Positions 3,121 through 52,174 of a stretch of DNA of 64,000 nt are shown in pieces. Source of the stretch: an uncultured Parcubacteria group bacterium. GTDB lineage: Bacteria > Patescibacteriota > Patescibacteriia > UBA9934 > CAMTUG01. The notes below the pieces were generated by a model that was not told the origin of the DNA, searched no databases, and was given only the letters and a program-made list of their open reading frames with translations. Numbering within the stretch: the first letter of the stretch is position 1; each line of letters starts with the position of its first letter. The translations under genes and the position numbers were made by a program. The stretch covers positions 276,206 through 340,205 of the forward strand of contig CAMTUG010000001.1 of NCBI GenBank assembly GCA_947084965.1. The letters run 5' to 3'.

Positions 3121-3149
3121 TTGTCAGTGCCAGTTGCTTTTGATACGTT
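3121..3149 (+). promoter_or_regulatory. Sigma70-like promoter for the zinc-finger ORF
   Basis: TTGTCA (3121-3126), a 17-nt spacer, then TACGTT (3144-3149). AAAGGAG at 3161-3167 precedes ATG 3172. Confidence 0.45.
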
Positions 3150-3171
3150 CCTGCCGTCCCAAAGGAGTCCC

Positions 3172-3741
3172 ATGCCCCCTCGTTCTTCCGCCCCCGCCGG
3201 TCTCTCCTGCTCCTTCTGCACCAAGGCCGCCAACACCCCTGAGGTGAAGAAGGTCATCGCCGGCGTAAACGTCTACATCTGTGACGTCTGCGTCAAGGGG
3301 ATGGTCGCGCTCGTCGTTGTCCAACGTCCGGCTGACGCATCCTACCTCCTGCGTCGGCCCGAGCTCGATCTGCGCACCTTCACCATGACCGTCACGGGGT
3401 CGACGACGCTCGGTGACGTGCTCGGCTGGTACCTGCGTGTCTACCGTACGTTCCCTCACCTCCCCAAGGAGACCGGGACGGTCATCACGAGTGCTGCCTG
3501 CCGATTCTGCAGCCGGGTCGACCAGGTCGTGATCAGCCGCCTCGCGGCCAACATCTGCCTCGACTGCCTGCGGGACGTCGCCAAGATCCTGCTCAAGGAC
3601 GACCCTGCGCCGTCCTACCTGGTGCGTGATGCGGTGCTCGACTTGTGCCCGTTCGCCACCCTCCGCCTCGACGTGGATGAGCCGCACACCATCGGCGATG
3701 TTCTCAACGCCTACACGACCGCATCTCCGCCGCTGAACTGA
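3172..3741 (+). CDS. Two-module protein with tandem ClpX-type C4 zinc fingers (orphan, GC3-rich)
   Basis: The motifs 'CSFC...YICDVC' and 'CRFC...NICLDC' are each followed by a related module ('LDLRTFTMTV..TLGDVLGWY' and 'LDLCPFATLRL..TIGDVLNAY'). Hand counts give 42/60 G+C in the first 60 nt and 25/30 G/C at codon position 3. AAAGGAG lies upstream. The track start at 3121 falls inside the putative promoter, so ATG 3172 is preferred. Confidence 0.7.
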   Translation: MPPRSSAPAGLSCSFCTKAANTPEVKKVIAGVNVYICDVCVKGMVALVVVQRPADASYLLRRPELDLRTFTMTVTGSTTLGDVLGWYLRVYRTFPHLPKETGTVITSAACRFCSRVDQVVISRLAANICLDCLRDVAKILLKDDPAPSYLVRDAVLDLCPFATLRLDVDEPHTIGDVLNAYTTASPPLN

Positions 3742-3863: not shown

Positions 3864-5048
3864 TTACGGTCGTTCCTTGGGGCGGAGGAAGTAGAGGACG
3901 ATCGCGAGAATGACGAGCAGTCCGCCGGAAGCGAGCCAGACGTCAGCGATGTTCGCCGGCGTGTCCTCGCGGCCGGACATGTAGAAGGCGAGTGAGAAGA
4001 GGACGATCGCGGCGCCGATCTCTTCCATCAGCGACTGCAACGATCCGAACGTCGAGCGGTATTCGCTCGTAACGTGGTGGTTGGTGTAGCTGTCGAGGAG
4101 CGGTCGGAACGCCCCGCGGCCGACTTCGTGCACCACGCCCATCACGAGGACCAGTCCAAGCCCAGGAACTTGCCCGATGAGCGCCAGGCCAACCCCAGCG
4201 ACGACGAGGGCGATCATCACGGCTTTGGCTTCGGCCCCTGAAGCGATCTTCGCTTTGCGAATGATCATCCCGGCGATGAAGAGCGCCAGATAGAGCGGGC
4301 TCCAGATCAGTCCGAGCTGGCTGGTGGCCACAAACTGCTCGAAGTACTTCGGCCAGTAGTGGTTGAACGCCACGACCAGACCGCTCACCATCCCTACCGC
4401 CACGGCCCAGCGCAGCGCCGAGCTGTTGCGCAGGGCATTGACGCTCCGCTTGAGCGCCTCTTTCTCGCTGACCTTTTCGTGGGCCAGTACTTCGCCGTCG
4501 CCGTTCATGTAGCGGGTGACGACAAAGAGTCCGACGAGAGCAAAGAACGCACTAGCGATCCACGGCCACCGAAGGCCGAAGGTCGATCCGATCCACGAGC
4601 CAAAGATCGCCGCCGGTGCGGCCAGCAATCCTTTGACGATCGCGGCGTTGGCGAACGTCTGCCCCTTTTCGTTTTCGCGATTGTGCAACTTCAAGGCGTC
4701 GACGATCCAGGCCTGCTGAATCCCCGAGAGGAAGGTGAAGGCCAAACCGTTGACCACTTCGGCCGCCAGCGCCCACCAGACGTTCTCTGCCAGGAAGTAG
4801 ATCGCGTTGCCCAGAGCGAAGATCAGGAAGCCGATGCGCAAGGACCAGGCGCGGGAGCGGGCGTCGGCCCACATCCCGGTCGGGACTTCGAAGAGGATGA
4901 TCGCCACCCAGAACCAACCGTTGACCATCGAAACCTGGCTCAAGGTGAGCCCGATCGAGGTGAGGAACGGAACGTAGGTCGCCGTGGTGACCATGAACAT
5001 CAGGCCCAGGGCGGCGGAGAAGAGGATGTAGGCGCGGGAAGGGGACAT
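3864..5048 (-). CDS. MFS-type transporter (GC3-rich)
   Basis: 394 aa, hydrophobic, with roughly 12 TM segments of MFS type. 28/30 G/C at codon position 3 in the first 30 codons. GGAGG lies just upstream of the ATG. Confidence 0.8.
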   Translation of the reverse strand: MSPSRAYILFSAALGLMFMVTTATYVPFLTSIGLTLSQVSMVNGWFWVAIILFEVPTGMWADARSRAWSLRIGFLIFALGNAIYFLAENVWWALAAEVVNGLAFTFLSGIQQAWIVDALKLHNRENEKGQTFANAAIVKGLLAAPAAIFGSWIGSTFGLRWPWIASAFFALVGLFVVTRYMNGDGEVLAHEKVSEKEALKRSVNALRNSSALRWAVAVGMVSGLVVAFNHYWPKYFEQFVATSQLGLIWSPLYLALFIAGMIIRKAKIASGAEAKAVMIALVVAGVGLALIGQVPGLGLVLVMGVVHEVGRGAFRPLLDSYTNHHVTSEYRSTFGSLQSLMEEIGAAIVLFSLAFYMSGREDTPANIADVWLASGGLLVILAIVLYFLRPKERP

Positions 5049-26035: not shown

Positions 26036-26329
26036 TCAGTGGTAGAGGATGGTCGGATCGTCCGAACCGTCCGTGCCGGTGGTGGCGACCCTCCAGGCTC
26101 GGAGGATGCGTTGTAGTACCTCGTCTGGTTCGGCGGCCTTCGGCGTGACCGGAGGGTTCGAGGGCGTCATCGCGGCGTATCGATGACCGCAGTCCTCGCA
26201 GACGTACTCCGTCGTTGGGCGATCCGCCCCGAAGTTCACGATCTCCACGAGCTGGGTGTTCCGTCGCGGGCACCAGTCGCAGTCGCCGGTACACAGAGGG
26301 TTGCTCTGAAGCAGGCGGGTCTTAGACAT
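26036..26329 (-). CDS. Zinc-ribbon protein with a Thr/Ser/Asp-rich C-terminus (orphan, GC3-rich)
   Basis: 97 aa. 'CTGDCDWC...CEDC' four-Cys ribbon and the C-terminus 'VATTGTDGSDDPTILYH'. 25/30 G/C at codon position 3. AGGAG lies 5 nt before the ATG. Confidence 0.65.
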   Translation of the reverse strand: MSKTRLLQSNPLCTGDCDWCPRRNTQLVEIVNFGADRPTTEYVCEDCGHRYAAMTPSNPPVTPKAAEPDEVLQRILRAWRVATTGTDGSDDPTILYH

Positions 26330-30348: not shown

Positions 30349-30726
30349 CTAGCGTGCGACGACCACGTAGATGCCGTCGCGGTACTGACCGAGGAGGTAG
30401 AAGATCAGACCCTCGACCGTGATCCGCAGCGGGCGCAAGTGCGGCTCGAGCGGGACCGTGCCAAGGAGCATCCTTTCGACCGTGGCGGTGGTGCCGCCCA
30501 GCCGCAGGATGTGCACGGCGCTGATGGCGGGGTGGACCTGGGCCTGCAGCGTCCGGATGATCGCTGTGATGATCGGGTTGGGCGTGCCAGGCTTCGTGCC
30601 GGCCAGCTCGCCAGACGCGAGCTCCTCGCGCCGGATCGCGAGGGTGACCATGATCGGTCGGATGCGCAGCTCGGCCTCGGGCCCGAGCGTGGTACGAAGG
30701 TGGTTGCGCAGTCGGGCGGTGTCCAT
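30349..30726 (-). CDS. Orphan soluble protein (GC3-rich)
   Basis: 125 aa starting 'MDTARLRNHL'. 42/60 G+C in the first 60 nt and 26/30 G/C at codon position 3. ACGGAG lies 7 nt before the ATG. The longer track ORF (to 30780) would run through its own promoter. Confidence 0.6.
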   Translation of the reverse strand: MDTARLRNHLRTTLGPEAELRIRPIMVTLAIRREELASGELAGTKPGTPNPIITAIIRTLQAQVHPAISAVHILRLGGTTATVERMLLGTVPLEPHLRPLRITVEGLIFYLLGQYRDGIYVVVAR

Positions 30727-30751
30727 GGCAGATCTCCGTTGGGGACCCTGG

Positions 30752-30793
30752 ATCATATGCGTTTTTGACGTTCGCGTCAAGGATTGCTAGGAT
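30752..30793. promoter_or_regulatory. Back-to-back divergent promoters sharing palindromic -35 boxes
   Basis: The minus strand reads TTGACG (30780-30775), 17 nt, TATGAT (30757-30752). The plus strand reads TTGACG (30765-30770), 17 nt, TAGGAT (30788-30793). Together they form 'ttgacg-ttcg-cgtcaa'. Confidence 0.45.
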
Positions 30794-32213: not shown

Positions 32214-34304
32214 ATGGAGTTTAAAATCCATTCGAAATACAAGCCGGCGGGGGATCAGCCAGTAGCGATTGCGCAATTGGTTGATGGGGTGAATAAAGGT
32301 CTCAACATGCAGACCTTGCTTGGTGTTACCGGTTCGGGGAAGACGTTTACGATGGCGAACGTGATTGAAAAGACGCAAAAACCAACGCTGATCATCGCGC
32401 ACAACAAAACGCTCGCCGCCCAGCTATGCAATGAGTTTCGCGAGTTTTTTCCGGAGAACGTCGTGGAATACTTTGTTTCGTACTACGACTACTACCAGCC
32501 GGAGGCGTACATGCCGCGGACGGACACATATATTGAGAAAGAAGCGATGATCAACGACGAGATCGATCGGCTGCGTCACGCCGCGTCCCAGGCGTTGTTG
32601 ACCCGGCGCGACGTGATCATCGTTGCCTCTGTTTCGTGTATTTACGGTTTGGGCTCGCCAGTAGAGTATGAACGCTCGGTGTTGCATTTAGTGTCCGCGA
32701 AAGAGGAAAGAGGTGAGAGGAAAGAGGAAGGACTCGGACGTGCCGAACTATTGCATCGTCTGATCGATATGCAGTTTGAGCGGACGAATGCAGATTTAAA
32801 GCGCGGAAGTTTCCGTGCTCGTGGGGAGGTGATTGAAATCATGCCGATGCAAGAGGAGGTCGTCTATCGATTGATTTTCGAAGGCGATGTTATTCGCGAG
32901 ATCTTTTTGCTTGATCCTGTGTCGCGAGCAGAAAAGAGCAAAACGCAAGATGTTTGGATCTTTCCTGCCAAGCATTATGTTGTTTCACCAAAACAGAAGT
33001 CCACGGCGTTAGCGCAAATTCGCGCCGAGTTAAAAGCTCAGCTGGAGAAGTTCGATAAAGAAGGCAAGGTGCTGGAAGCCGAACGTCTGTCGCGTCGCAC
33101 TCGTTATGACATCGAAATGATTGAACAGGTCGGCTACTGCAACGGGATCGAAAATTACTCGCGCCATTTTGATGGTCGTGCTCCGGGCGAACCACCGTTT
33201 ACGTTAATGGATTATTTCCCGGATGACTTTTTGACGATCATCGACGAATCACATGTGACGGTGTCACAAGTTGGTGGGATGTTTAACGGCGACCAGGCGC
33301 GCAAAAACATGCTGATCGAGCACGGATTTCGTTTGCCGTCGGCGCGCGATAACCGTCCGCTCAAGTTTGAAGAGTTTGAAGAGCGCTTGGGGCAGACGAT
33401 CTTTACCTCAGCAACACCTGGGGAATACGAAGGAGAGCATTCTGAACAGATCGTTGAGCAGATTATTCGTCCAACAGGGTTGGTTGATCCAGAAGTAGAC
33501 GTGCGACCGGTAACTGGGATCGGCGGGAAAAAGGGGCAGGTGGATGACTTGATCGGTGAAATCGAAGAGCGGGTCAAGCTCGGCGAGCGCACGTTGGTCA
33601 CCACACTCACCAAAAAGATGGCCGAAGATCTGACGACGTTTTTGATTGAGAGGAAGATCAAGGTGCAATATCTGCACTCAGACGTCGACACATTGGAGCG
33701 CATTACCGTTCTGACCGATCTACGCAAAGGGAAGTACGACGTGCTCGTTGGAGTCAACTTGTTGCGCGAAGGGCTCGACTTACCAGAAGTTACGCTGGTG
33801 GCGATTCTTGACGCGGATAAAGAAGGGTTCTTGCGTTCAGACACGTCGATCATTCAGACGATCGGGCGTGCGGCGCGCAACGTCAAAGGGAAAGTTATTC
33901 TGTACGCGGACGTGATGACCGGTTCGATGAAGCGAGCGATCAAAGAAACGGATCGTCGTCGTGTCAAACAATTGGCGTATAACAAGGAACACGGCATTAC
34001 GCCGAAGAGCGTTGAAAAGGGGATCAAAGATATTCGCGCCATGCTCGGGGTCAGCGAGGAGGTTGATATCAAGTCCATTCTCAAACTGGAATTGACTGTA
34101 GAGCCACATGAGATTGACGAGGTGATCAAGCAGAAGGGGATCGAGATGCGATTAGCGGCCCGCGATTTGGACTTTGAACTGGCGGCGCTTCTACGTGATG
34201 AGATCGAGCTCTTAAAAAACGAACAGAAACAAAAAAAACGCACGGGCGCGAAAGATAAGGAGACTGCCACCCCGAAGAAGTTTTCCTCGGGGGGCAGGGA
34301 GTGA
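32214..34304 (+). CDS. uvrB: Excinuclease ABC subunit B
   Basis: '[10 protein letters not shown]', 'DESH' and the C-terminal UVR motif '[13 protein letters not shown]'. Confidence 0.95.
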
Positions 34305-34517: not shown

Positions 34518-34605
34518 GGTACTCTCTCCTCACCCAACGGAAGGGTTGGGCTACACCTAATTACATCAAAAAAATTCATCTTCGAAAAATTGTTTGTGGA
34601 TAAGT

Positions 34606-37128
34606 ATGCACGATAAGATCACCATCAAAGGCGCGCGCGAGCACAACCTAAAAAACATCTCGCTTGAGATGCCACGCAATAAACTTGTGTGCATCACCGG
34701 GCTTTCTGGATCAGGAAAGTCGAGTTTAGCGTTCGATACAATCTTTGCCGAAGGCCAGCGTCGTTACGTGGAGTCGTTGTCGGCCTACGCTCGGCAGTTT
34801 TTGGGACAGATGCAGAAGCCAGATGTCGATGAAATCGAAGGGTTATCCCCGGCGATTTCTATCGATCAAAAGGCGCATTCCGCCAACCCGCGTTCGACCG
34901 TGGCGACGATCACCGAAGTGTACGACTATCTGCGTGTGTTATTTGCGCGCGTCGGTCATCCCCACTGTCCCATCTGCAAGCGCGAGATTCAGAAGCTGAC
35001 CGTGGATGAGATGGTTGATTTGGTTATTGAAGAAAGTGGTAAGCAGAAAGGAGTAAGGACAGACACAAAAGGAAAGGAACTTCTCGTCCTGGCGCCGGTC
35101 GTGCGTGGTCGCAAAGGGAATTACTTTCAGTTGCTCTACGATCTTTATAACTCTGGGTTTGCTCGCGTCCGCATCGATGGCAAGGTTTTTTCTTTGTCCG
35201 AACGTATTGATCTCGCTCGATTTAAACAGCACACGATTGAAGTGATCGTCGACACGATCCCGGTGGTTGATCTTGCCACCAAGGAAGGTCGTCAGCGCTT
35301 GGCCGAAGCGATCGAAACGTCGATCAAGCACGGCGAAGATACGGTGCAAGTCATCTTCCCTGACAAAACTGAGCGCTTACTGTCAGCTAAGTTTTCTTGT
35401 CCGGATGATGGATTCTCGTTCCCGGAAATCGAACCGCGCCTGTTCAGTTTCAACTCACCGTATGGAGCCTGTCCTGATTGCACCGGGCTCGGCACGAAGG
35501 AGCTTTTTTCTGAGGACCTGTGCCCGAGCTGTCTTGGGATGCGTCTGCGTCGCGAATCGATGTTCGTGTGGCTTCCAGGTAATCGCTCGATTGTGGACGT
35601 GACGTTCATGTCGATAGACGAAGCGGTCAAATACTTTGATGAACTGACACTTAGCGAAAAGGAGATGGAGATCGCCACGACGATCTTAAAAGAGATCCGC
35701 AATCGTTTGCAATTCATGCTTTCGGTCGGGTTGCACTATCTGACACTCAATCGTATGGCTGGAACGCTTTCGGGTGGAGAAGCACAGCGTATTCGTTTGG
35801 CTTCACAAGTTGGAACGCGCCTGACAGGAGCGATGTATGTCCTTGATGAACCGACGATCGGCCTGCATCAGCGCGATAACGAACGGTTAATCGAAACGCT
35901 TCTCGAACTGCGCGACTTGGGCAACACCGTGATCGTTGTCGAACATGATGAAGACACGATTCGCGCTTCGGATTACATGATCGAAATCGGTCCGGGTGCT
36001 GGCGTCCACGGTGGGAATGTCATGGCGAGCGGCACCGTGCCGGAGATTTTTAAGGATAAAAAGTCGTTGACGGCGGCCTATTTGCGCGGGGACAAAAAGA
36101 TCCCAGTTCCAGAAAAGCGCCGCGCGCCGGGGCATGATGCGATCAGGATCCAGGGAGCGAAAGAAAATAACTTGAAGAATATCGACGTGGAAATTCCATT
36201 GCGTCGGTTTGTCTGCATCACCGGCGTCTCTGGTTCAGGGAAGTCGTCGTTGACCCGCGATATTTTGTATCGCGAACTGTCGCGTCGTTTGTACAGCTCG
36301 CGCGAAAAGCCTGGGGAGCACAAAGCCGTATTCGGAACGGATTACATCGATAAGTGTATTCTTGTGGACCAGTCAGCGATCGGCCGCACGCCGCGTTCAA
36401 ATCCAGCGACCTACACCGGTGCCTGGGGCCCGATTCGCGATATCTTTGCTGCTACGGCTGAAGCACGCTACCGCGGCTACAAGCCAGGACGGTTTAGTTT
36501 TAACACTCCGGGTGGACGCTGTGAAAACTGCGAAGGTCACGGGCTAATCGCCATTGAAATGCACTTCTTGCCAACGGTCTATGTGACCTGCGAGGTCTGC
36601 AAGGGCAAGCGCTTTGATCGTGAAACACTCGAGATCGAGTTCAAAGAAAAAAATATTCACGATATTTTGGAGATGACGATCGAAGAAGCCGAAGTTTTTT
36701 TCCGCGAGATTCCGTTGGTGCACGACAAACTCAAGACGCTCGTTGAAGTCGGACTCGGTTATCTGAAAGTCGGTCAAGGGGCGCCAACGCTTTCCGGTGG
36801 GGAAGCACAGCGTGTTAAACTCGCGGCGGAATTATCAAAGCGCCAAACGGGGCGGACGTTATATTTGCTCGATGAGCCGACGACCGGTCTGCACTTCGAG
36901 GACGTTAAGAATCTTCTGGAGGTGTTGCACAAGTTAGTCGATAAAGGAAATTCCGTCTTGGTGATCGAACACAACTTGGACGTGATCAAAACCGCGGACT
37001 GGATTATCGACCTCGGCCCCGAGGGGGGCGATCGCGGGGGCGAATTGGTTGCCTTCGGCACACCAGAAGATATTGTGCGATCTGCGCGATCGCACACGGG
37101 ACGCTATTTGAAGAAGTATCTAGCTTAG
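34606..37128 (+). CDS. uvrA: Excinuclease ABC subunit A
   Basis: Two ABC modules ('GLSGSGKSS', 'GVSGSGKSS', 'LSGGEAQR' twice) and zinc-finger Cys clusters. ATG 34606. Confidence 0.95.
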
Positions 37129-39627: not shown

Positions 39628-39644
39628 TTGTGCACAATTTACAA

Positions 39645-39674
39645 TTGACAAATGGAGTTTTTTCTGGTTAAATA
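39645..39674 (+). promoter_or_regulatory. Promoter of the non-coding unit
   Basis: TTGACA (39645-39650), a 17-nt spacer, then TTAAAT/TAAATA. The 10-bp palindrome 'ttgtgcacaa' lies just upstream. Confidence 0.45.
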
Positions 39675-39679
39675 GAGTG

Positions 39680-39944
39680 ACAATAAGGTAGTAGGGTGCA
39701 AAGGAAGACCCTCGAAATCATTTGATGATCTCGGGGGATTTTGTTTGTCGAGACTTGGGATCCGTGGGCCCTGATACGGTTATCCTGCTGAACCTCATCA
39801 ATTCGGCACGAGGGGTTCGACTCCCCTAGGGTCCACGGCTTCAGGTCTTGACCAAATGTCACTTTTTCTAGTAGGTTTAAATCGATGAGGTTCAGCTGAT
39901 GATACCTATCAGAAACAAAACAGAGCGCAATGGCGCTCTGTTTT
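39680..39944 (+). ncRNA. Candidate structured ncRNA of about 265 nt, class unknown, bounded by a promoter and a terminator
   Basis: There is no credible ORF. Visible structure includes the hairpin 'ccctcgaaatcat..atgatctcgggg', a tRNA-like domain, the 13-bp long-range helix 39787-39799/39884-39896, and the terminator 'cagagcgc-aatg-gcgctctg-tttt' at 39921-39944. Confidence 0.5.
39766..39835 (+). ncRNA. tRNA-like domain (acceptor stem with G3:U70, T arm, no anticodon arm)
   Basis: 5' 'gggccct' pairs with 3' 'agggtcc', with a G:T wobble at the third pair. The T arm is 'agggg-ttcgact-cccct', with the same T loop as tRNA-Thr in this window. The discriminator is A. The D and anticodon arms cannot be folded. 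Confidence 0.5.
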
Positions 39945-39968
39945 GCAACTCCGTGATAAAATAGTTTC

Positions 39969-41294
39969 ATGATTCCCAAATTCATCACCACCAAAAACGC
40001 TGAGCTTCCGGATAATCCGGGGGTGTATTTTTACTATGATACGAAAGGGAAGTTGCTGTACATCGGCAAGGCGACGAGTTTGAAAAAACGCGTGGGATCA
40101 TATTTCACCAAAGCGCATGATAATCGCATCGCCGATTTGGTAACGAAGATTGCGCGGATTGATTACATCGAAACACCGACCGTTATCGAAGCGCTAGTGC
40201 TTGAAGCGAATCAGATCAAAGCGCATACGCCGCCGTACAATGTTTTGCAGCGCGATGACAAAAGTTTTCTGTATGTGGCGATCACCAATGAAGACTTTCC
40301 CAAGCCGACGTTGCTTCGCGGGTTGGAGTTGCAGCGCATGGGAGTTGATCCGTTTGCGCCGACGCTCTCGCTCAAAGCCAAGCGCAAGTTCAAGGCGATT
40401 TATGGTCCGTACACCAGCGGGCATTCGTTGAAGATCGCTCTCGATCTGATTCGTAAGAGCATTCCTTGGACAACCTGTGAACCGCCAGAAGTGACGGGAG
40501 TAGCCAAAGCCTGTTTTTATCGCCACCTTGGCCAGTGTCCAGGAGTTTGTACAGGAGAGATCACCAAGCGTGATTATGCGAAGATTATTCGCAGTCTGAT
40601 GCTGTTTTTTGAGGGCAAAAAGGAACAGATCATACGCCAGATGCGTCGGGAGATGAAGTCTGCGGCGAATGATTTAGATTTTGAACGCGCCGCGGAATTG
40701 AAGCGTAAGACTTTCGCGTTAACGCATATTCAAGACGTGGCGTTGGTGAGTCACGAAGAGCCGTTGCCGTACAATCGCGAGTCGAAGCCGTACATTGATA
40801 TTCTCGGGCGCATCGAAGCGTACGACATCAGTAATATTTCTGGCACCTCCGCAGTTGGATCGATGGTTGTGTTTGATGACGGGAAGCCAGCCAAACAGCA
40901 CTATCGCAAGTTTAAAATCAAAACCGTGGTTGGCGCGAACGACGTGGCGTGTTTAGAGGAGGTGATGCGTCGTCGTTTGGCGCGTGCGGAGCTGCAGCCA
41001 AAAGCTTGGCCGTTGCCAGAGCTGATGGTGATTGATGGCGGCAAGCCGCAAGTCAATCGGGTGCAAGAAGTGCTCGATGAGTTGCAGGTTGCACTGCCGA
41101 TTGTTGGGCTGGCCAAAGGATTTGATCGCAAGCAGGACGTGTTGATTTTTGATCCTGCCAATCGCGAGTTAAAGCGTGTCGTCGAAACGAACAAAGAGAT
41201 CCTCCAGCGCGCCCGCGACGAAGCGCATCGCTTTGCTATCAGCTACCATCGTAAACTACGAGGAAAACGCTCATTATTGGGCCCTCATACTTGA
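39969..41294 (+). CDS. uvrC: Excinuclease ABC subunit C, short form ending where the (HhH)2 domain normally begins
   Basis: GIY-YIG 'GVYFYYDTKGKLLYIGKA', UVR 'DLDFERAAELKRK' and endonuclease region 'RDEAHRFAISYHRKLRGKR'. 441 aa. Confidence 0.9.
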   Translation: MIPKFITTKNAELPDNPGVYFYYDTKGKLLYIGKATSLKKRVGSYFTKAHDNRIADLVTKIARIDYIETPTVIEALVLEANQIKAHTPPYNVLQRDDKSFLYVAITNEDFPKPTLLRGLELQRMGVDPFAPTLSLKAKRKFKAIYGPYTSGHSLKIALDLIRKSIPWTTCEPPEVTGVAKACFYRHLGQCPGVCTGEITKRDYAKIIRSLMLFFEGKKEQIIRQMRREMKSAANDLDFERAAELKRKTFALTHIQDVALVSHEEPLPYNRESKPYIDILGRIEAYDISNISGTSAVGSMVVFDDGKPAKQHYRKFKIKTVVGANDVACLEEVMRRRLARAELQPKAWPLPELMVIDGGKPQVNRVQEVLDELQVALPIVGLAKGFDRKQDVLIFDPANRELKRVVETNKEILQRARDEAHRFAISYHRKLRGKRSLLGPHT

Positions 41295-41319
41295 CAGGGA
41301 TCGATTTTTGCTTTATCTT
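41291..41319 (+). promoter_or_regulatory. Promoter of the orphan ORF; the -35 box overlaps the uvrC stop codon
   Basis: TTGACA (41291-41296), a 17-nt spacer, then TATCTT (41314-41319). AAGGAG at 41333-41338. Confidence 0.45.
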
Positions 41320-41343
41320 TACCCTCCACCCCAAGGAGTCTCA

Positions 41344-41688
41344 ATGTCCGAGTCCGTCACCGCCTTCCGTCCCGATCCGGCCAAGATCTACGAGATCACG
41401 CTCCTCGAGGGCGACGTGGATCAGATCTGGAACCTCGCCCACGAAGGGGGTCGTTCGATCCTGCTTCTCGTGCGAGACCAGGCCGATCCCGCCGCGCCCG
41501 AGCAGGGGCTCTCCCTCATCCTCTACTCCGTCGCCTGGGAGGGCGGCGACAAGGAAAACCACCCGAACGAGGTCGTCGTCCGCGGCCGCATCCACGGCCG
41601 TACCGCGGACGAGCCGAACCCGGTGATCGGGTTTTGCTGGGACGACAAGTCCCGGACCGGTCTCCTCAACGTGGTCCTCCCGGTCTAG
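41344..41688 (+). CDS. Orphan soluble protein (GC3-rich)
   Basis: 114 aa starting 'MSESVTAFRPDPAKIYEITLLEG'. 27/30 G/C at codon position 3. AAGGAG lies 5 nt before the ATG. The longer track ORF from 41176 is out of context because it overlaps uvrC. Confidence 0.65.
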   Translation: MSESVTAFRPDPAKIYEITLLEGDVDQIWNLAHEGGRSILLLVRDQADPAAPEQGLSLILYSVAWEGGDKENHPNEVVVRGRIHGRTADEPNPVIGFCWDDKSRTGLLNVVLPV

Positions 41689-41743
41689 ACGTCCGGGCCT
41701 CGCCCTGCACGTCCGACCGGCTGCGATTCTCGCACCCGCCCCG

Positions 41744-41790
41744 GCATGAGCCCCTCGCTCACACTGCCGCGGTGGGTGCTCATGCTTTTA
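41744..41790 (+). terminator. Terminator of the orphan cassette
   Basis: 'gcatgagc...gctcatgc' followed by 'ttttatcgtcttttttt'. Confidence 0.65.
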
Positions 41791-41828
41791 TCGTCTTTTT
41801 TTGAATGCCGTGTTACATTGTCCCTACT

Positions 41829-42983
41829 ATGAAACATTATCTTTCTGGTCCGTTATTTTTGGGACTTATCGTGACTATGGGCTTTATTCCAATGTCGGTT
41901 TGGGCGGCGAGTGCCTGGCCGGCGTCCACGCAAGGGACGAGTATTGGCGGAGGGTTTGCGGGGATGACTCCGGCATTTGAACCGAGTGGGATTGAATGGT
42001 TGAGTGGGCGTTCTCAATTTGTCGTGGTCGGGGACGAAGGTCAGGTGGCGACGATGAATGCGGACGGAAGTGCTGCCAAGGTCTGGGATCTCGGTCGCAG
42101 CTATGACTTAGAAGGGGTCGCCGTAGCAGATGGGAATTCGAGCCGCGTCTATCTACTCGATGAAAACACCAGCTCGGCATTGGAGTTTGATTTGACGACC
42201 GGAACGCTGACCGGAAAAGTTTGGAGCTTTGCTGACAAACTTTCTGAAATCGACGGTTCTGGAGCGGAAGCTCTCGCTTATGCCAACGGCGCTTTCTATG
42301 TTGGCTGGCAGTACGACGGCGACATTTACGTCTATCCCGCAGATTTGGCGGTTAGTGGCTCGCAAGTTTTTGAACGCGAAATTCACATGACCTCTGGATA
42401 CGTTGATCTTGCTGGACTCACCTACAACAGCGACACCCAAAGACTCTACGCGCTATATGACGGGCTTAACTTGATCGAAGAGCGCTCGCTTAGTGGGGAA
42501 TTGCTCGCTTCCTACACAGCCCCTGGTGTGAATCAGGAGGGTATTGCTTTTGTGAACAACTGCGCTGGATCAAATGCAACGGTGGCGATCGCGGAAGATT
42601 CGGGGAATGTGGTGAGTTACGCGGGGTATCCGATCTCCTGTATTTCTCCGGCCCCAGCTCCTGCCCCTGCACCAGAACCTACGCCAGAGCCAACCCCGGA
42701 GCCAGCTCCTGAACCAGAGCTCATTACGATCACCTCCGTTTCCGGCGTGCGCGATGGGGACATTCTCGTTGCTTACTCCGACGGATCAACGGTGCGTTAC
42801 TCGATCTGGAGCAAAACAACTCGCACCAAGACCTCTGTTCAGCCGCTCACAGATCCGACCCATTACTTAGTGATCCTTGGGAAACAGGTCGCGGTCGTTG
42901 ATGCGATGGATGGTACGATTCTTGGTACGCGCAGCAAACCGCGATCCTCGTCAGTGCTGTACAGCTGGGCCAATTCGTTCTAA
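41829..42983 (+). CDS. Secreted beta-propeller-like protein with a Pro/Glu/Thr linker (possibly SdiA-regulated/YjiK-like)
   Basis: Signal peptide 'MKHYLSGPLFLGLIVTMGFIPMSVWA'. 'FEPSGIEWL' and 'SGAEALAY' repeats. 'PAPAPAPEPTPEPTPEPAPEPE' linker. Confidence 0.55.
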   Translation: MKHYLSGPLFLGLIVTMGFIPMSVWAASAWPASTQGTSIGGGFAGMTPAFEPSGIEWLSGRSQFVVVGDEGQVATMNADGSAAKVWDLGRSYDLEGVAVADGNSSRVYLLDENTSSALEFDLTTGTLTGKVWSFADKLSEIDGSGAEALAYANGAFYVGWQYDGDIYVYPADLAVSGSQVFEREIHMTSGYVDLAGLTYNSDTQRLYALYDGLNLIEERSLSGELLASYTAPGVNQEGIAFVNNCAGSNATVAIAEDSGNVVSYAGYPISCISPAPAPAPAPEPTPEPTPEPAPEPELITITSVSGVRDGDILVAYSDGSTVRYSIWSKTTRTKTSVQPLTDPTHYLVILGKQVAVVDAMDGTILGTRSKPRSSSVLYSWANSF

Positions 42984-43000
42984 AGAAATTCAAGAGAAAC

Positions 43001-43032
43001 AAATCCGGCTCACGGGGCCGGATTTGTGTTTT
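43001..43032 (+). terminator. Intrinsic terminator
   Basis: 'aaatccggc-tcacggg-gccggattt' followed by 'gtgtttt'. Confidence 0.8.
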
Positions 43033-43074
43033 GGAGTTATCCACATTTTGCAACTTTTCTAAGGGAAAAAGGTG

Positions 43075-43103
43075 TTGACGCGTGTCACTGAGTGGAATAG
43101 AAT
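43075..43103 (+). promoter_or_regulatory. mraZ (dcw) promoter
   Basis: TTGACG (43075-43080), a 17-nt spacer, then TAGAAT (43098-43103). Confidence 0.6.
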
Positions 43104-43136
43104 GGGGTTACAGGGAACGAAGTGGGTAACTGTGGG
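43092..43136 (+). promoter_or_regulatory. Array of five 10-bp-phased (G/A)TGG(G/A) boxes (MraZ operator-like)
   Basis: gtgga 43092, atggg 43102, aggga 43112, gtggg 43122 and gtggg 43132, overlapping and just downstream of the -10 box. MraZ is known to bind phased TGGGN repeats at its own promoter. Confidence 0.6.
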
Positions 43137-43247
43137 GAAGGTCGATCAACGCGTCGGCGTCCTCATTTTTATTCTCCTGTGGGGTACAAAGCAATCGCAA
43201 AACAAAAACAAAAAGTGCCTGCTAAGTAACGTGACCGTGAGTCCACT

Positions 43248-43679
43248 ATGTTTCTCGGAGAATATCATCACTCCATAGACGAGAAAGGCCGACTGGCAGT
43301 GCCAGTGAAGTTTCGGGCTGACTTGTCGAAGGGGGCGGTGATCACTCGGGGACTCGACGGCGCGTTATTCTTGTTTCCCCAGGAGGAGTGGGGAAAGCTT
43401 GCAGAGAAATTGGCAAGCTTGCCCTTGGGGCGAGCAAACTCACGTGCATTCGCCCGGCTCATGCTTGCGGGCGCAATGGACGCTTCACTCGATAAACAAG
43501 GCCGCGTCGTCGTCCCCGAGTTCCTCCGGGAGTATGCGGGTATTGCCAAAACGGTGGTAATCGCTGGTCTCTATAACCGTCTGGAAATTTGGGATGAAGC
43601 GAAGTGGGCTTTATACAAAACCGAAACAGAAGGGGAGGCAGGCGGGATTGCAGAACAGTTGGGTGAGCTTGGGCTCTAG
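43248..43679 (+). CDS. mraZ: Transcriptional regulator MraZ
   Basis: 'MFLGEYHHSIDEKGRLAVPVKFR' and a second SpoVT/AbrB-like repeat, 'DKQGRVVVPEFLR'. Confidence 0.95.
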   Translation: MFLGEYHHSIDEKGRLAVPVKFRADLSKGAVITRGLDGALFLFPQEEWGKLAEKLASLPLGRANSRAFARLMLAGAMDASLDKQGRVVVPEFLREYAGIAKTVVIAGLYNRLEIWDEAKWALYKTETEGEAGGIAEQLGELGL

Positions 43680-51632: not shown

Positions 51633-52100
51633 TCAGCCGTAGAAGCCGAGGCGTTGGTAGAGGTGGGGTGGGAAGGAGACGCTGGGGGTCAGCGCCTGGT
51701 CCTCTGTGGTCGAGGTGGCGACGACCTGGTTGGTGCCGAGGTCCGTGTTCACGAAGAACTGGAACTCGACCGCTCCGGTCCCGAAGAAGGTGGAGATCAC
51801 GGCCACGCCCTGCTCGTTCGAGCGGACGTACCCGTAGTAGTCGAACCCGCTGTAGCCGATCAGCGGGATCTCGAGCTTGAACCCGACCAGCGCGCAGAAC
51901 GGTCGGTCGCCCCTGAGGACGATGTTCTGCATGCTGCGCTCGAGCCCTTCCGCCTTCGCACCGCGGTAGGTGTAGCGGACCATCTGGTTGGAGTACTTGA
52001 TGAAGTCGGCCATGAAGCCGAACTTCTTCAGGAATTCCTTGCTGAGGAAGACCGCCAGTGTGGTGGAGAGGACGAGGCAGGTGGTGAGGAGAACGGTCAT
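51633..52100 (-). CDS. Membrane-anchored (or lipo-)protein, orphan, GC3-rich
   Basis: 155 aa. 'MTVLLTTCLVLSTTLAVFL' is a hydrophobic N-terminus containing a Cys. 27/30 G/C at codon position 3. AGGAAGG lies before the ATG. The other long ORFs here are off-frame shadows. Confidence 0.65.
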   Translation of the reverse strand: MTVLLTTCLVLSTTLAVFLSKEFLKKFGFMADFIKYSNQMVRYTYRGAKAEGLERSMQNIVLRGDRPFCALVGFKLEIPLIGYSGFDYYGYVRSNEQGVAVISTFFGTGAVEFQFFVNTDLGTNQVVATSTTEDQALTPSVSFPPHLYQRLGFYG

Positions 52101-52145
52101 CGGAACCTTCCTGTAAGCCGCGGCGGGGATGCCATGCGGGGGATG

Positions 52146-52174
52146 AATATAGCATATTTTGGGCAAAAAGTCAA
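52146..52174 (-). promoter_or_regulatory. Promoter of the membrane-anchored orphan
   Basis: The minus strand reads TTGACT (52174-52169), a 17-nt spacer, then TATATT (52151-52146). Confidence 0.5.

Follow-up and report, generated by a model that had tools for sequence, protein, structure and literature searches.

Does a uvrC gene that ends early owe its end to the gene that follows it, or is it complete as it stands? The question is raised by a 64,000-nucleotide stretch of DNA from an uncultured Parcubacteria group bacterium (GenBank assembly GCA_947084965.1, contig CAMTUG010000001.1, positions 276,206 to 340,205; in the following "the window"), in which uvrC (39969-41294, + strand), encoding a UvrC of 441 amino acids (aa), is followed directly by a GC-rich gene for a protein of 114 aa (41344-41688, + strand). 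An initial annotation had offered two readings, either that insertion of the GC-rich cassette removed the 3' end of uvrC, or that a short UvrC is natural to the lineage and the position of the junction a coincidence. Our results argue for the latter: we assign a probability of roughly 0.85 to the explanation that uvrC is intact and of a short form found throughout the lineage, unaffected by its GC-rich neighbour, which is itself an independent, recombining accessory unit.

UvrC stops at the expected start of the (HhH)2 domain

The window UvrC exceeds the cutoff of the TIGR00194 equivalog (374.2 bits, cutoff 285.45), and Pfam assigns three domains to it. The N-terminal GIY-YIG nuclease domain (PF01541, residues 17-91, E 1.6e-7; 1yd6_A of the PDB versus residues 8-100, E 6.6e-24) contains the motifs GVY (18-20) and YIG (31-33). 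It is followed by the UVR motif for UvrB binding (PF02151, residues 219-245), which has further matches in C-terminal peptides of UvrB (chains 2nmv_B and 2d7d_B), and by the RNase H-like endonuclease domain UvrC_RNaseH (PF08459, residues 279-424, E 1e-44), which was aligned to 3c65_A, 2nrt_A and 8b0q_A. The residues aligning to the DDH triad, as defined for UvrC in PMC10085695, are D286 in AYDISN, D356 in VIDGG and H421 in DEAHRF, and the four Cys are kept (170, 182, 190 and 194).

A helix-hairpin-helix (HhH) domain, by contrast the one tested feature of the family that the window UvrC lacks, gave no Pfam match. The protein ends in ...RDEAHRFAISYHRKLRGKRSLLGPHT, and its alignment to the solved C-terminal halves of the Geobacillus, Thermotoga and Deinococcus proteins ends at query residue 434-436, so that it stops 5-7 residues past the last residue aligned to these structures. 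The solved chains run on by 57 (3c65_A) and 66 residues (8b0q_A), and in Deinococcus radiodurans UvrC, of which 8b0q comprises residues 366-617, the HhH pair, (HhH)2, occupies residues 550-608 (PMC10085695). Thus, the window UvrC ends where (HhH)2 would begin, just as had been proposed from the sequence.

Compared with canonical UvrC (Escherichia coli, Thermotoga maritima, D. radiodurans; TIGR00194), the window protein and those of its nearest relatives share the GIY-YIG domain for the 3' incision, the four Cys, the UVR motif and the RNase H-like domain for the 5' incision with its DDH triad, but have no (HhH)2 and a central region that is shorter by ~60-100 aa, the window UvrC measuring 441 aa versus ~560-620 aa. 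Another shortened UvrC-type nuclease with a GIY-YIG domain is Cho (NF007833), to which the match is weak (56 bits). In Cho the entire C-terminal half is missing, and with it the RNase H-like domain; since this domain is kept here, the window protein must be counted as UvrC, not as Cho. Its domain architecture is a natural variant common to its clade.

The short UvrC is shared by relatives without the GC-rich gene

We compared UvrC with the best 120 homologues listed by BLASTP (63-80% identity), those with a name being Candidatus Uhrbacteria, Parcubacteria or Patescibacteria. All 120 are short (410-491 aa, median 443), none has an HhH domain in Pfam, and in every one the C-terminal tail extends only 5-25 residues beyond the motif RDE[AS]HRFAxxYH[RK]xxR. 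Gene contexts were retrieved for the nearest relatives, L002, L006, L007, L008/L009 and L010. In L002, L007 and L010, whose UvrC is 82%, 78% and 72% identical to that of the window by global alignment, uvrC is followed by mraZ with no gene in between; in L008/L009 (75%) it is followed by hrcA, and in L006 (78%) by a conserved non-coding element, a candidate non-coding RNA. None of these relatives carries the 114-aa gene, yet their UvrC proteins of 434-464 aa have the same C-terminus. As L007 keeps the order APH-uvrC-mraZ of the window, it can be used as a reference for the empty site.

Loss of the uvrC 3' end including (HhH)2 through insertion of the GC-rich cassette, which would have left a truncated and possibly impaired gene, is therefore extremely improbable. 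It would have explained why the open reading frame (ORF) ends where HhH would begin, why the uvrC stop falls within the -35-like hexamer of the unit that follows and why the composition changes sharply at the junction. The overlap that the initial annotation described is real, with the stop codon TGA (41292-41294) sitting within TTGACA (41291-41296), but it is incidental, because uvrC of L006, which has no 114-aa gene, stops in the same way, in GCT-TGA-C within TTGAC. In L004, which does carry the 114-aa gene, TTGACA lies 40 nucleotides (nt) past an equally short uvrC. Nor did the downstream DNA contain the HhH remnants that a truncation might have left: in 10 of the 22 forward-frame fragments of at least 25 aa from 41200-43250, covering the non-genic stretches, no Pfam match of any kind, HhH included, was obtained at E up to 10. 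As all 120 listed homologues are equally short and the five relatives without the 114-aa gene end UvrC at the same place, the proposed removal of the 3' end is refuted, on the very ground that the initial annotation had named for this, while the naturally short UvrC next to a coincidental junction is supported. To annotate the gene as a pseudogene, or as the casualty of an insertion, would consequently be a mistake. Our literature search found no paper on UvrC without HhH in Patescibacteria or the candidate phyla radiation.

Excision-repair genes with a short UvrC and an apparently reduced UvrA

Full-length uvrB (32214-34304, + strand, 696 aa) and uvrA (34594-37128, + strand, 844 aa) are located 5-9 kb upstream of uvrC, and as both exceed their NCBIfam equivalog cutoffs the excision-repair gene set is complete. 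When aligned to the UvrA profile of 943 positions, the window UvrA is devoid of ~100 positions before residue 303. Pfam identifies the UvrB-interaction domain (residues 155-255) in it, and the insertion domain, UvrA_DNA-bind, was not detected. UvrA of L006 has a similar length (841 aa), and from the sequences UvrA appears to be domain-reduced in this lineage, as UvrC is.

An engineered D. radiodurans UvrC without (HhH)2, whose domain content is the same as that of the window UvrC, can still bind UvrB as well as DNA and perform dual incision, with a weaker cut on the 5' side (PMC10085695), rendering a natural UvrC without HhH mechanistically plausible. By analogy, the UvrC described here would, together with UvrA and UvrB, still perform both incisions, and would probably make the 5' cut with less help in DNA anchoring, like the engineered protein. 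The two differ in that the D. radiodurans construct was made by deletion in the laboratory and is partly impaired in the 5' incision, whereas the window architecture is natural, conserved and known here from sequence. The natural variant complements the deletion study: a whole clade of ultra-small bacteria with a UvrC without (HhH)2, and with a UvrA without detectable insertion domain, offers an experiment of nature on the extent to which excision repair in bacteria depends on DNA anchoring.

Many of the short UvrCs (P0013, P0017, P0024, P0031, P0070 and others) end in Lys/Arg-rich tails such as ...KKSKKRKKNSG or ...RPRKKKR. Judged by their composition, these tails might replace the non-specific DNA binding of (HhH)2. 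The tail of the window UvrC is only GKRSLLGPHT and is not Lys/Arg-rich.

The GC-rich island holds a real gene of a very small family

The G+C content climbs from ~0.51 in uvrC to 0.66-0.69 over 41300-41800 and drops afterwards, delimiting an island of ~0.5 kb (41295-41800) with one gene, the 114-aa ORF (G+C 0.66 versus 0.51 in uvrC). This ORF starts with ATG at 41344 and ends with TAG at 41686-41688; the start at 41176 given in the initial annotation is only the GTG of a mechanically extended ORF. The AAGGAG Shine-Dalgarno sequence noted there was found again, as was the bias at codon position 3, with 27 of the first 30 codons ending in G or C. For the whole gene the G+C fraction at this position (GC3) is 0.886, compared with 0.60 ± 0.05 in window ORFs of at least 250 aa.

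An exhaustive HMMER profile search among 1.84 billion representative proteins yielded only three true family members, the window protein, P0122 on L001 (48% identity) and P0123 on L004 (41%), the latter two being exactly 114 aa long as well. The name orphan used at first is thus nearly right, for a family of three. The three proteins share the blocks FRP, IW, VAWEGGD, E[VI]VVR, PV[IV]GFCWD and GLLN[IV]V. Two giant repetitive proteins that were also retrieved, P0124 with 14 and P0125 with 6 weak stretches, were discounted as summed weak matches to repeats. Wider searches by pattern and tblastn found only the L004 contig in GTDB genomes and nothing in JGI metagenomes, phages or plasmids. The L004 contig (L004/L005, CAZPQJ010000005.1) is labelled "uncultured Gammaproteobacteria bacterium"; the order of its genes is Patescibacteria-like, as is its UvrC, which shares 76% identity with that of the window and has relatives named Uhrbacteria, and the label is probably wrong.

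It is very unlikely that the GC-rich stretch is an assembly chimera, or non-coding GC-rich DNA with a long ORF that arose by chance. GC-rich DNA does give long ORFs in several frames, as seen here for the overlapping ORFs 41291-41626 (+ strand) and 41341-41595 (- strand), and no database family matches the protein. Against this stand the two homologues of the same length with the motifs VAWEGGD, PV[IV]GFCWD and GLLN[IV]V, and a nonsynonymous divergence (dN) below the synonymous one (dS), with dN/dS values of 0.41-0.80 between family members. In addition, GC3 lies far above the G+C fraction at codon position 2, the periodicity expected of this frame, the structure of the protein is predicted with confidence, and a Logan contig assembled independently agrees with the window at 100% identity along 8345 bp, including both junctions of the island. 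The 114-aa gene is a real gene.

No family could be assigned to its product at E up to 0.1 in Pfam, NCBIfam, PHROGs and PADLOC, and in a comparison of the profile with PDB sequences the best match, to SpoIIQ, was not significant (E 0.12). The AlphaFold2 (AF2) model, calculated from a two-sequence alignment, has a predicted local distance difference test score (pLDDT) of 80 and suggests a strand and a helix followed by five strands forming a small barrel. CBF-beta is a eukaryotic transcription-factor subunit, and its fold (1e50_B, 1io4_D) resembles the model at 10-14% identity with a template modelling (TM) score of ~0.5 and a Foldseek E of 0.05 or worse. At the level of the model this likeness is a weak resemblance in shape and no evidence of homology or function. 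The protein is acidic with an isoelectric point (pI) of 4.7 (4.7-5.3 in the family), and inspection of its sequence revealed no evident signal peptide.

All three family members are encoded just downstream of a short uvrC, immediately 3' of a gene whose product lacks HhH, which might suggest that the 114-aa protein is a trans-acting partner of UvrC that replaces the (HhH)2 DNA-binding module. We regard this as highly unlikely, since a protein with a pI of 4.7-5.3 is ill-suited to the DNA backbone and carries no HhH or other DNA-binding signature, and since nearly all genomes that encode the same short UvrC lack it. Moreover, its gene has a promoter-like site and a hairpin of its own and diverges far faster than UvrC (41% versus 76% identity).

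The unit carries its own promoter-like site, ribosome-binding site and hairpin

Upstream of the 114-aa gene a sigma-70-like promoter match (41291-41319, + strand) consists of TTGACA (41291-41296), a spacer of 17 nt and TATCTT (41314-41319), agreeing with the consensus at 10 of 12 positions; such matches occur near chance level in the region, with 2 found and 1.2 expected. The ribosome-binding site AAGGAG (41333-41338, + strand) ends 5 nt before the ATG and is kept as CCACCC(C)AAGGAG in L004 and L001, where the same arrangement of TTGACA, T-run and CCACCCAAGGAG precedes the homologous gene.

On the 3' side lies a conserved, terminator-like hairpin with a T-rich run (41732-41802, + strand), whose arms are GCACCCGC...GAGC...GGGTGCTCATGC. 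The long hairpin itself (41732-41779) is more stable than shuffled sequences (z = -4.0) and is followed by UCAUGCUUUUAUCGUCUUUUUUU, so that the terminator that had been ascribed to the unit is present as a predicted structure. A simple terminator scan omitted it, because loop and stem exceed the rules of the scan. Across units the arms are conserved as GCACCCGC...GAGC...GGGTGCTC[AT]TGCTTT, and the stem contains one compensatory pair (U-A to A-U). In L004 and L001 the same hairpin stands 3' of the 114-aa gene and also 3' of an unrelated gene for a protein of 156/159 aa. The element occurs once in the window, and a search of metagenome and viral contigs gave one chance match, within a gene unrelated to the unit (L011), the viral contigs yielding nothing. 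All three units thus have the common layout TTGACA, T-run, CCACCC(C)AAGGAG, ORF and hairpin, and the term cassette, used from the beginning, applies to them loosely, in the sense of a self-contained set of promoter-like site, ribosome-binding site, ORF and hairpin, and in that sense only.

Near-identical strains carry deeply diverged alleles, probably exchanged by recombination

L001 and L004 are, judging by flanks that are 94-100% identical, near-identical strains. The uvrC 3' end and promoter are identical at 194 of 207 positions, the segment that begins with the first hairpin and takes in the signal peptide of the second gene at 300 of 300 nt, and the downstream non-coding element at 251 of 267. 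Between these flanks the 114-aa coding sequences are only 44-68% identical per 50-nt window, and the proteins 51% identical (dS 1.19, dN 0.48). The second gene, which adjoins the 114-aa gene and encodes the secreted 156/159-aa protein with a signal peptide (L001:738-1217, L004:7940-8410), shows the same pattern, as the first 34 aligned codons are identical in DNA (dS 0) and the part for the mature protein is divergent (dS 0.55, dN 0.26; protein identity 71%). The window contains no homologue of the 156/159-aa protein.

The substitutions between L001 and L004 involve all four bases and extend along the entire ORF, and blastn and tblastn detected no second copy of the GC-rich island within the 64-kb window. 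A target of a diversity-generating retroelement or of related hypermutation was therefore rejected, the variation not being confined to adenines and a template copy being absent from the window. A published case of hypervariation in Gracilibacteria concerns an unrelated repeat locus. The simplest explanation would be homologous recombination through the conserved flanks that installs deeply diverged alleles, with the uvrC 3' end and promoter as the left flank of the exchange and the hairpin as the right one. The alleles would be drawn from a pool that is GC-richer or in which a high G+C content is maintained: GC3 is 0.73-0.89 in all three alleles despite saturated synonymous divergence, implying that high GC is either re-imported from a GC-richer pool or kept by biased gene conversion or selection.

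The distribution of the 114-aa gene is patchy. In a neighbour-joining tree of UvrC the window is the sister of L002, and L004 is the sister of L008, L002 and L008 both lacking the gene; hence, either it was lost several times independently or it was placed laterally at the same site. The former possibility supposes that the clade had the gene at this position from the start, passed it on vertically and lost it repeatedly, and that its high GC3 and rapid divergence are kept up in place, e.g. through selection or through GC-biased gene conversion at a hot spot of recombination, and not through import from a GC-rich donor pool. It has an appreciable chance of being right, even if we consider it unlikely on balance. 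It is favoured by the identical position after uvrC in two non-sister lineages, by the common layout of promoter-like site, ribosome-binding site and hairpin, by L006, which keeps a TTGACG and a T-run like those at the left end of the unit that could be the scar of a deletion, and by the failure to find a donor homologue. On the other hand, the UvrC tree would then call for no fewer than 3-4 separate losses, and at dS 0.7-1.2 a GC3 of 0.73-0.89 should drift to the 0.60 of the host unless it is actively maintained. Even then, deeply diverged alleles in near-identical strains still need recombinational exchange.

Several points weigh against the reading that we prefer, that of an intact short uvrC next to an independent, recombining accessory unit. 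No convincing target-site duplications, direct repeats or terminal inverted repeats were found around 41295-41800, nor is there an integrase or tRNA gene nearby, and no homologue of the 114-aa protein was found in any high-GC organism that could be the donor. The promoter and terminator of the unit are predicted from matches to consensus and structure, and what is said on selection and origin derives from three pairwise comparisons in a family of three members. L001 is a metagenomic contig of 1.7 kb, and a strain-chimeric assembly could sharpen the boundaries of the mosaic, though it could not create the divergent allele. Finally, the activity of UvrC in this lineage is inferred.

Relation to known mobile units and possible function

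With an autonomous promoter-like site, an ORF, a predicted terminator-like hairpin, a deviant composition and a position between genes that are adjacent in relatives, the 114-aa unit resembles a phage moron. It differs from a moron in being chromosomal and flanked by housekeeping genes, its neighbours being the genes for APH, UvrC, a protein with an SdiA-regulated domain, MraZ and RsmH. No PHROG, phage or BFVD match links it to a phage, and the location within a phage or prophage that characterizes morons was not found. An integron cassette was rejected, as the unit has its own promoter-like site, a 3' hairpin without a GTTRRRY core and an element that occurs once in the window (intI was not searched for).

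The gap between uvrC and mraZ is a hot spot of very rare, GC-rich, fast-evolving small genes whose alleles appear to be swapped between near-identical strains. Loci of this kind are frequently signs of molecular conflict and have hardly been described in uncultured symbiotic bacteria. In conflict loci, immunity/effector pairs for example, a hypervariable small cytoplasmic protein is typically found beside a secreted protein that varies as well. This would be the most likely functional class here, at low odds: speculatively, the 114-aa product could be a small acidic cytoplasmic protein-binding module, e.g. an immunity-type or anti-effector factor in inter-organism conflict. A still broader and equally tentative reading, doubtful as a whole, joins several of these observations: the 114-aa gene with its common promoter layout and the GCACCCGC...GGGTGCTCWTGCTTT hairpin may stand for a class, not described so far, of very small, self-contained accessory units in the chromosomes of Patescibacteria that are swapped by recombination, to which the 156/159-aa gene of L004 and L001 would also belong and which would be hypervariable and GC-rich through symbiont-host or symbiont-phage conflict (e.g. 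as immunity or anti-effector factors paired with a variable secreted protein), while the clade would, separately, run excision repair with a UvrC without (HhH)2 and a UvrA without detectable insertion domain.

Five more ORFs in the window have a GC3 of 0.80-0.89 versus 0.60, at 3121-3741 (+), 3864-5048 (-), 26036-26329 (-), 30349-30780 (-) and 51633-52166 (-). They encode a ClpX-type zinc finger protein, a major facilitator superfamily (MFS) transporter and three small orphans, and the hairpin motif of the 114-aa gene was found at none of the five. GC3-rich accessory genes are scattered through this genome.

Neighbouring genes and a structured element upstream of mraZ

Downstream of the island, 41805-42983 (+ strand) encodes a secreted, beta-propeller-like protein with an SdiA-regulated domain and a signal peptide (392 aa, or 384 aa from 41829). 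We rejected it as part of the same cassette, since its composition is normal (GC3 0.55) and homologues directly precede mraZ in genomes devoid of the 114-aa gene. Its family is typical of the lineage, being found in Patescibacteria, and lies directly upstream of mraZ in L013 and L015. The gene is followed by a terminator-like hairpin with an 11-bp stem (42999-43027).

Homology to the relatives without the cassette resumes at 43038-43103 (+ strand), a segment that contains TTATCCACA (43038-43046) and the mraZ promoter (TTGACG, 17 nt, TAGAAT; 43075-43103). TTATCCACA is a perfect match to the DnaA-box consensus, with equivalent sites in L002, L004 and L010 and ATATCCACA in L007. Downstream of the mraZ -10 element are spaced TGGGG/GTGGG repeats (43103-43140), which resemble MraZ operator repeats. 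mraZ itself (43248-43679, + strand) is the first gene of the division and cell-wall cluster.

In relatives, a conserved non-coding element of ~230 nt is located between uvrC, or the accessory genes, and mraZ (L002:1690-1915, L001:1445-1665, L004:8660-8880, L006:6440-6670, L010:4295-4505); it also occurs at the uvrC 3' end in L008 and is absent from the uvrC-mraZ position of the window and of L007. Its 5' part AAACUCCAC..CUGAAUUUGGC pairs with the 3' part GCCCAAAUCAGU..GUGGAG, and RNAalifold predicts 63 pairs from five sequences, 22 of them with compensatory changes. No match was obtained in Rfam even at E up to 1, and according to the predicted fold the element may be an undescribed structured RNA.

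On the other side of uvrC, a gap of 340 nt without a convincing ORF (39628-39968) separates it from the gene for the APH-family kinase. In L007 these two genes overlap by 4 nt, and the DNA upstream of uvrC in L002 contains a 59-nt match to window positions 39712-39768 with 86% identity.

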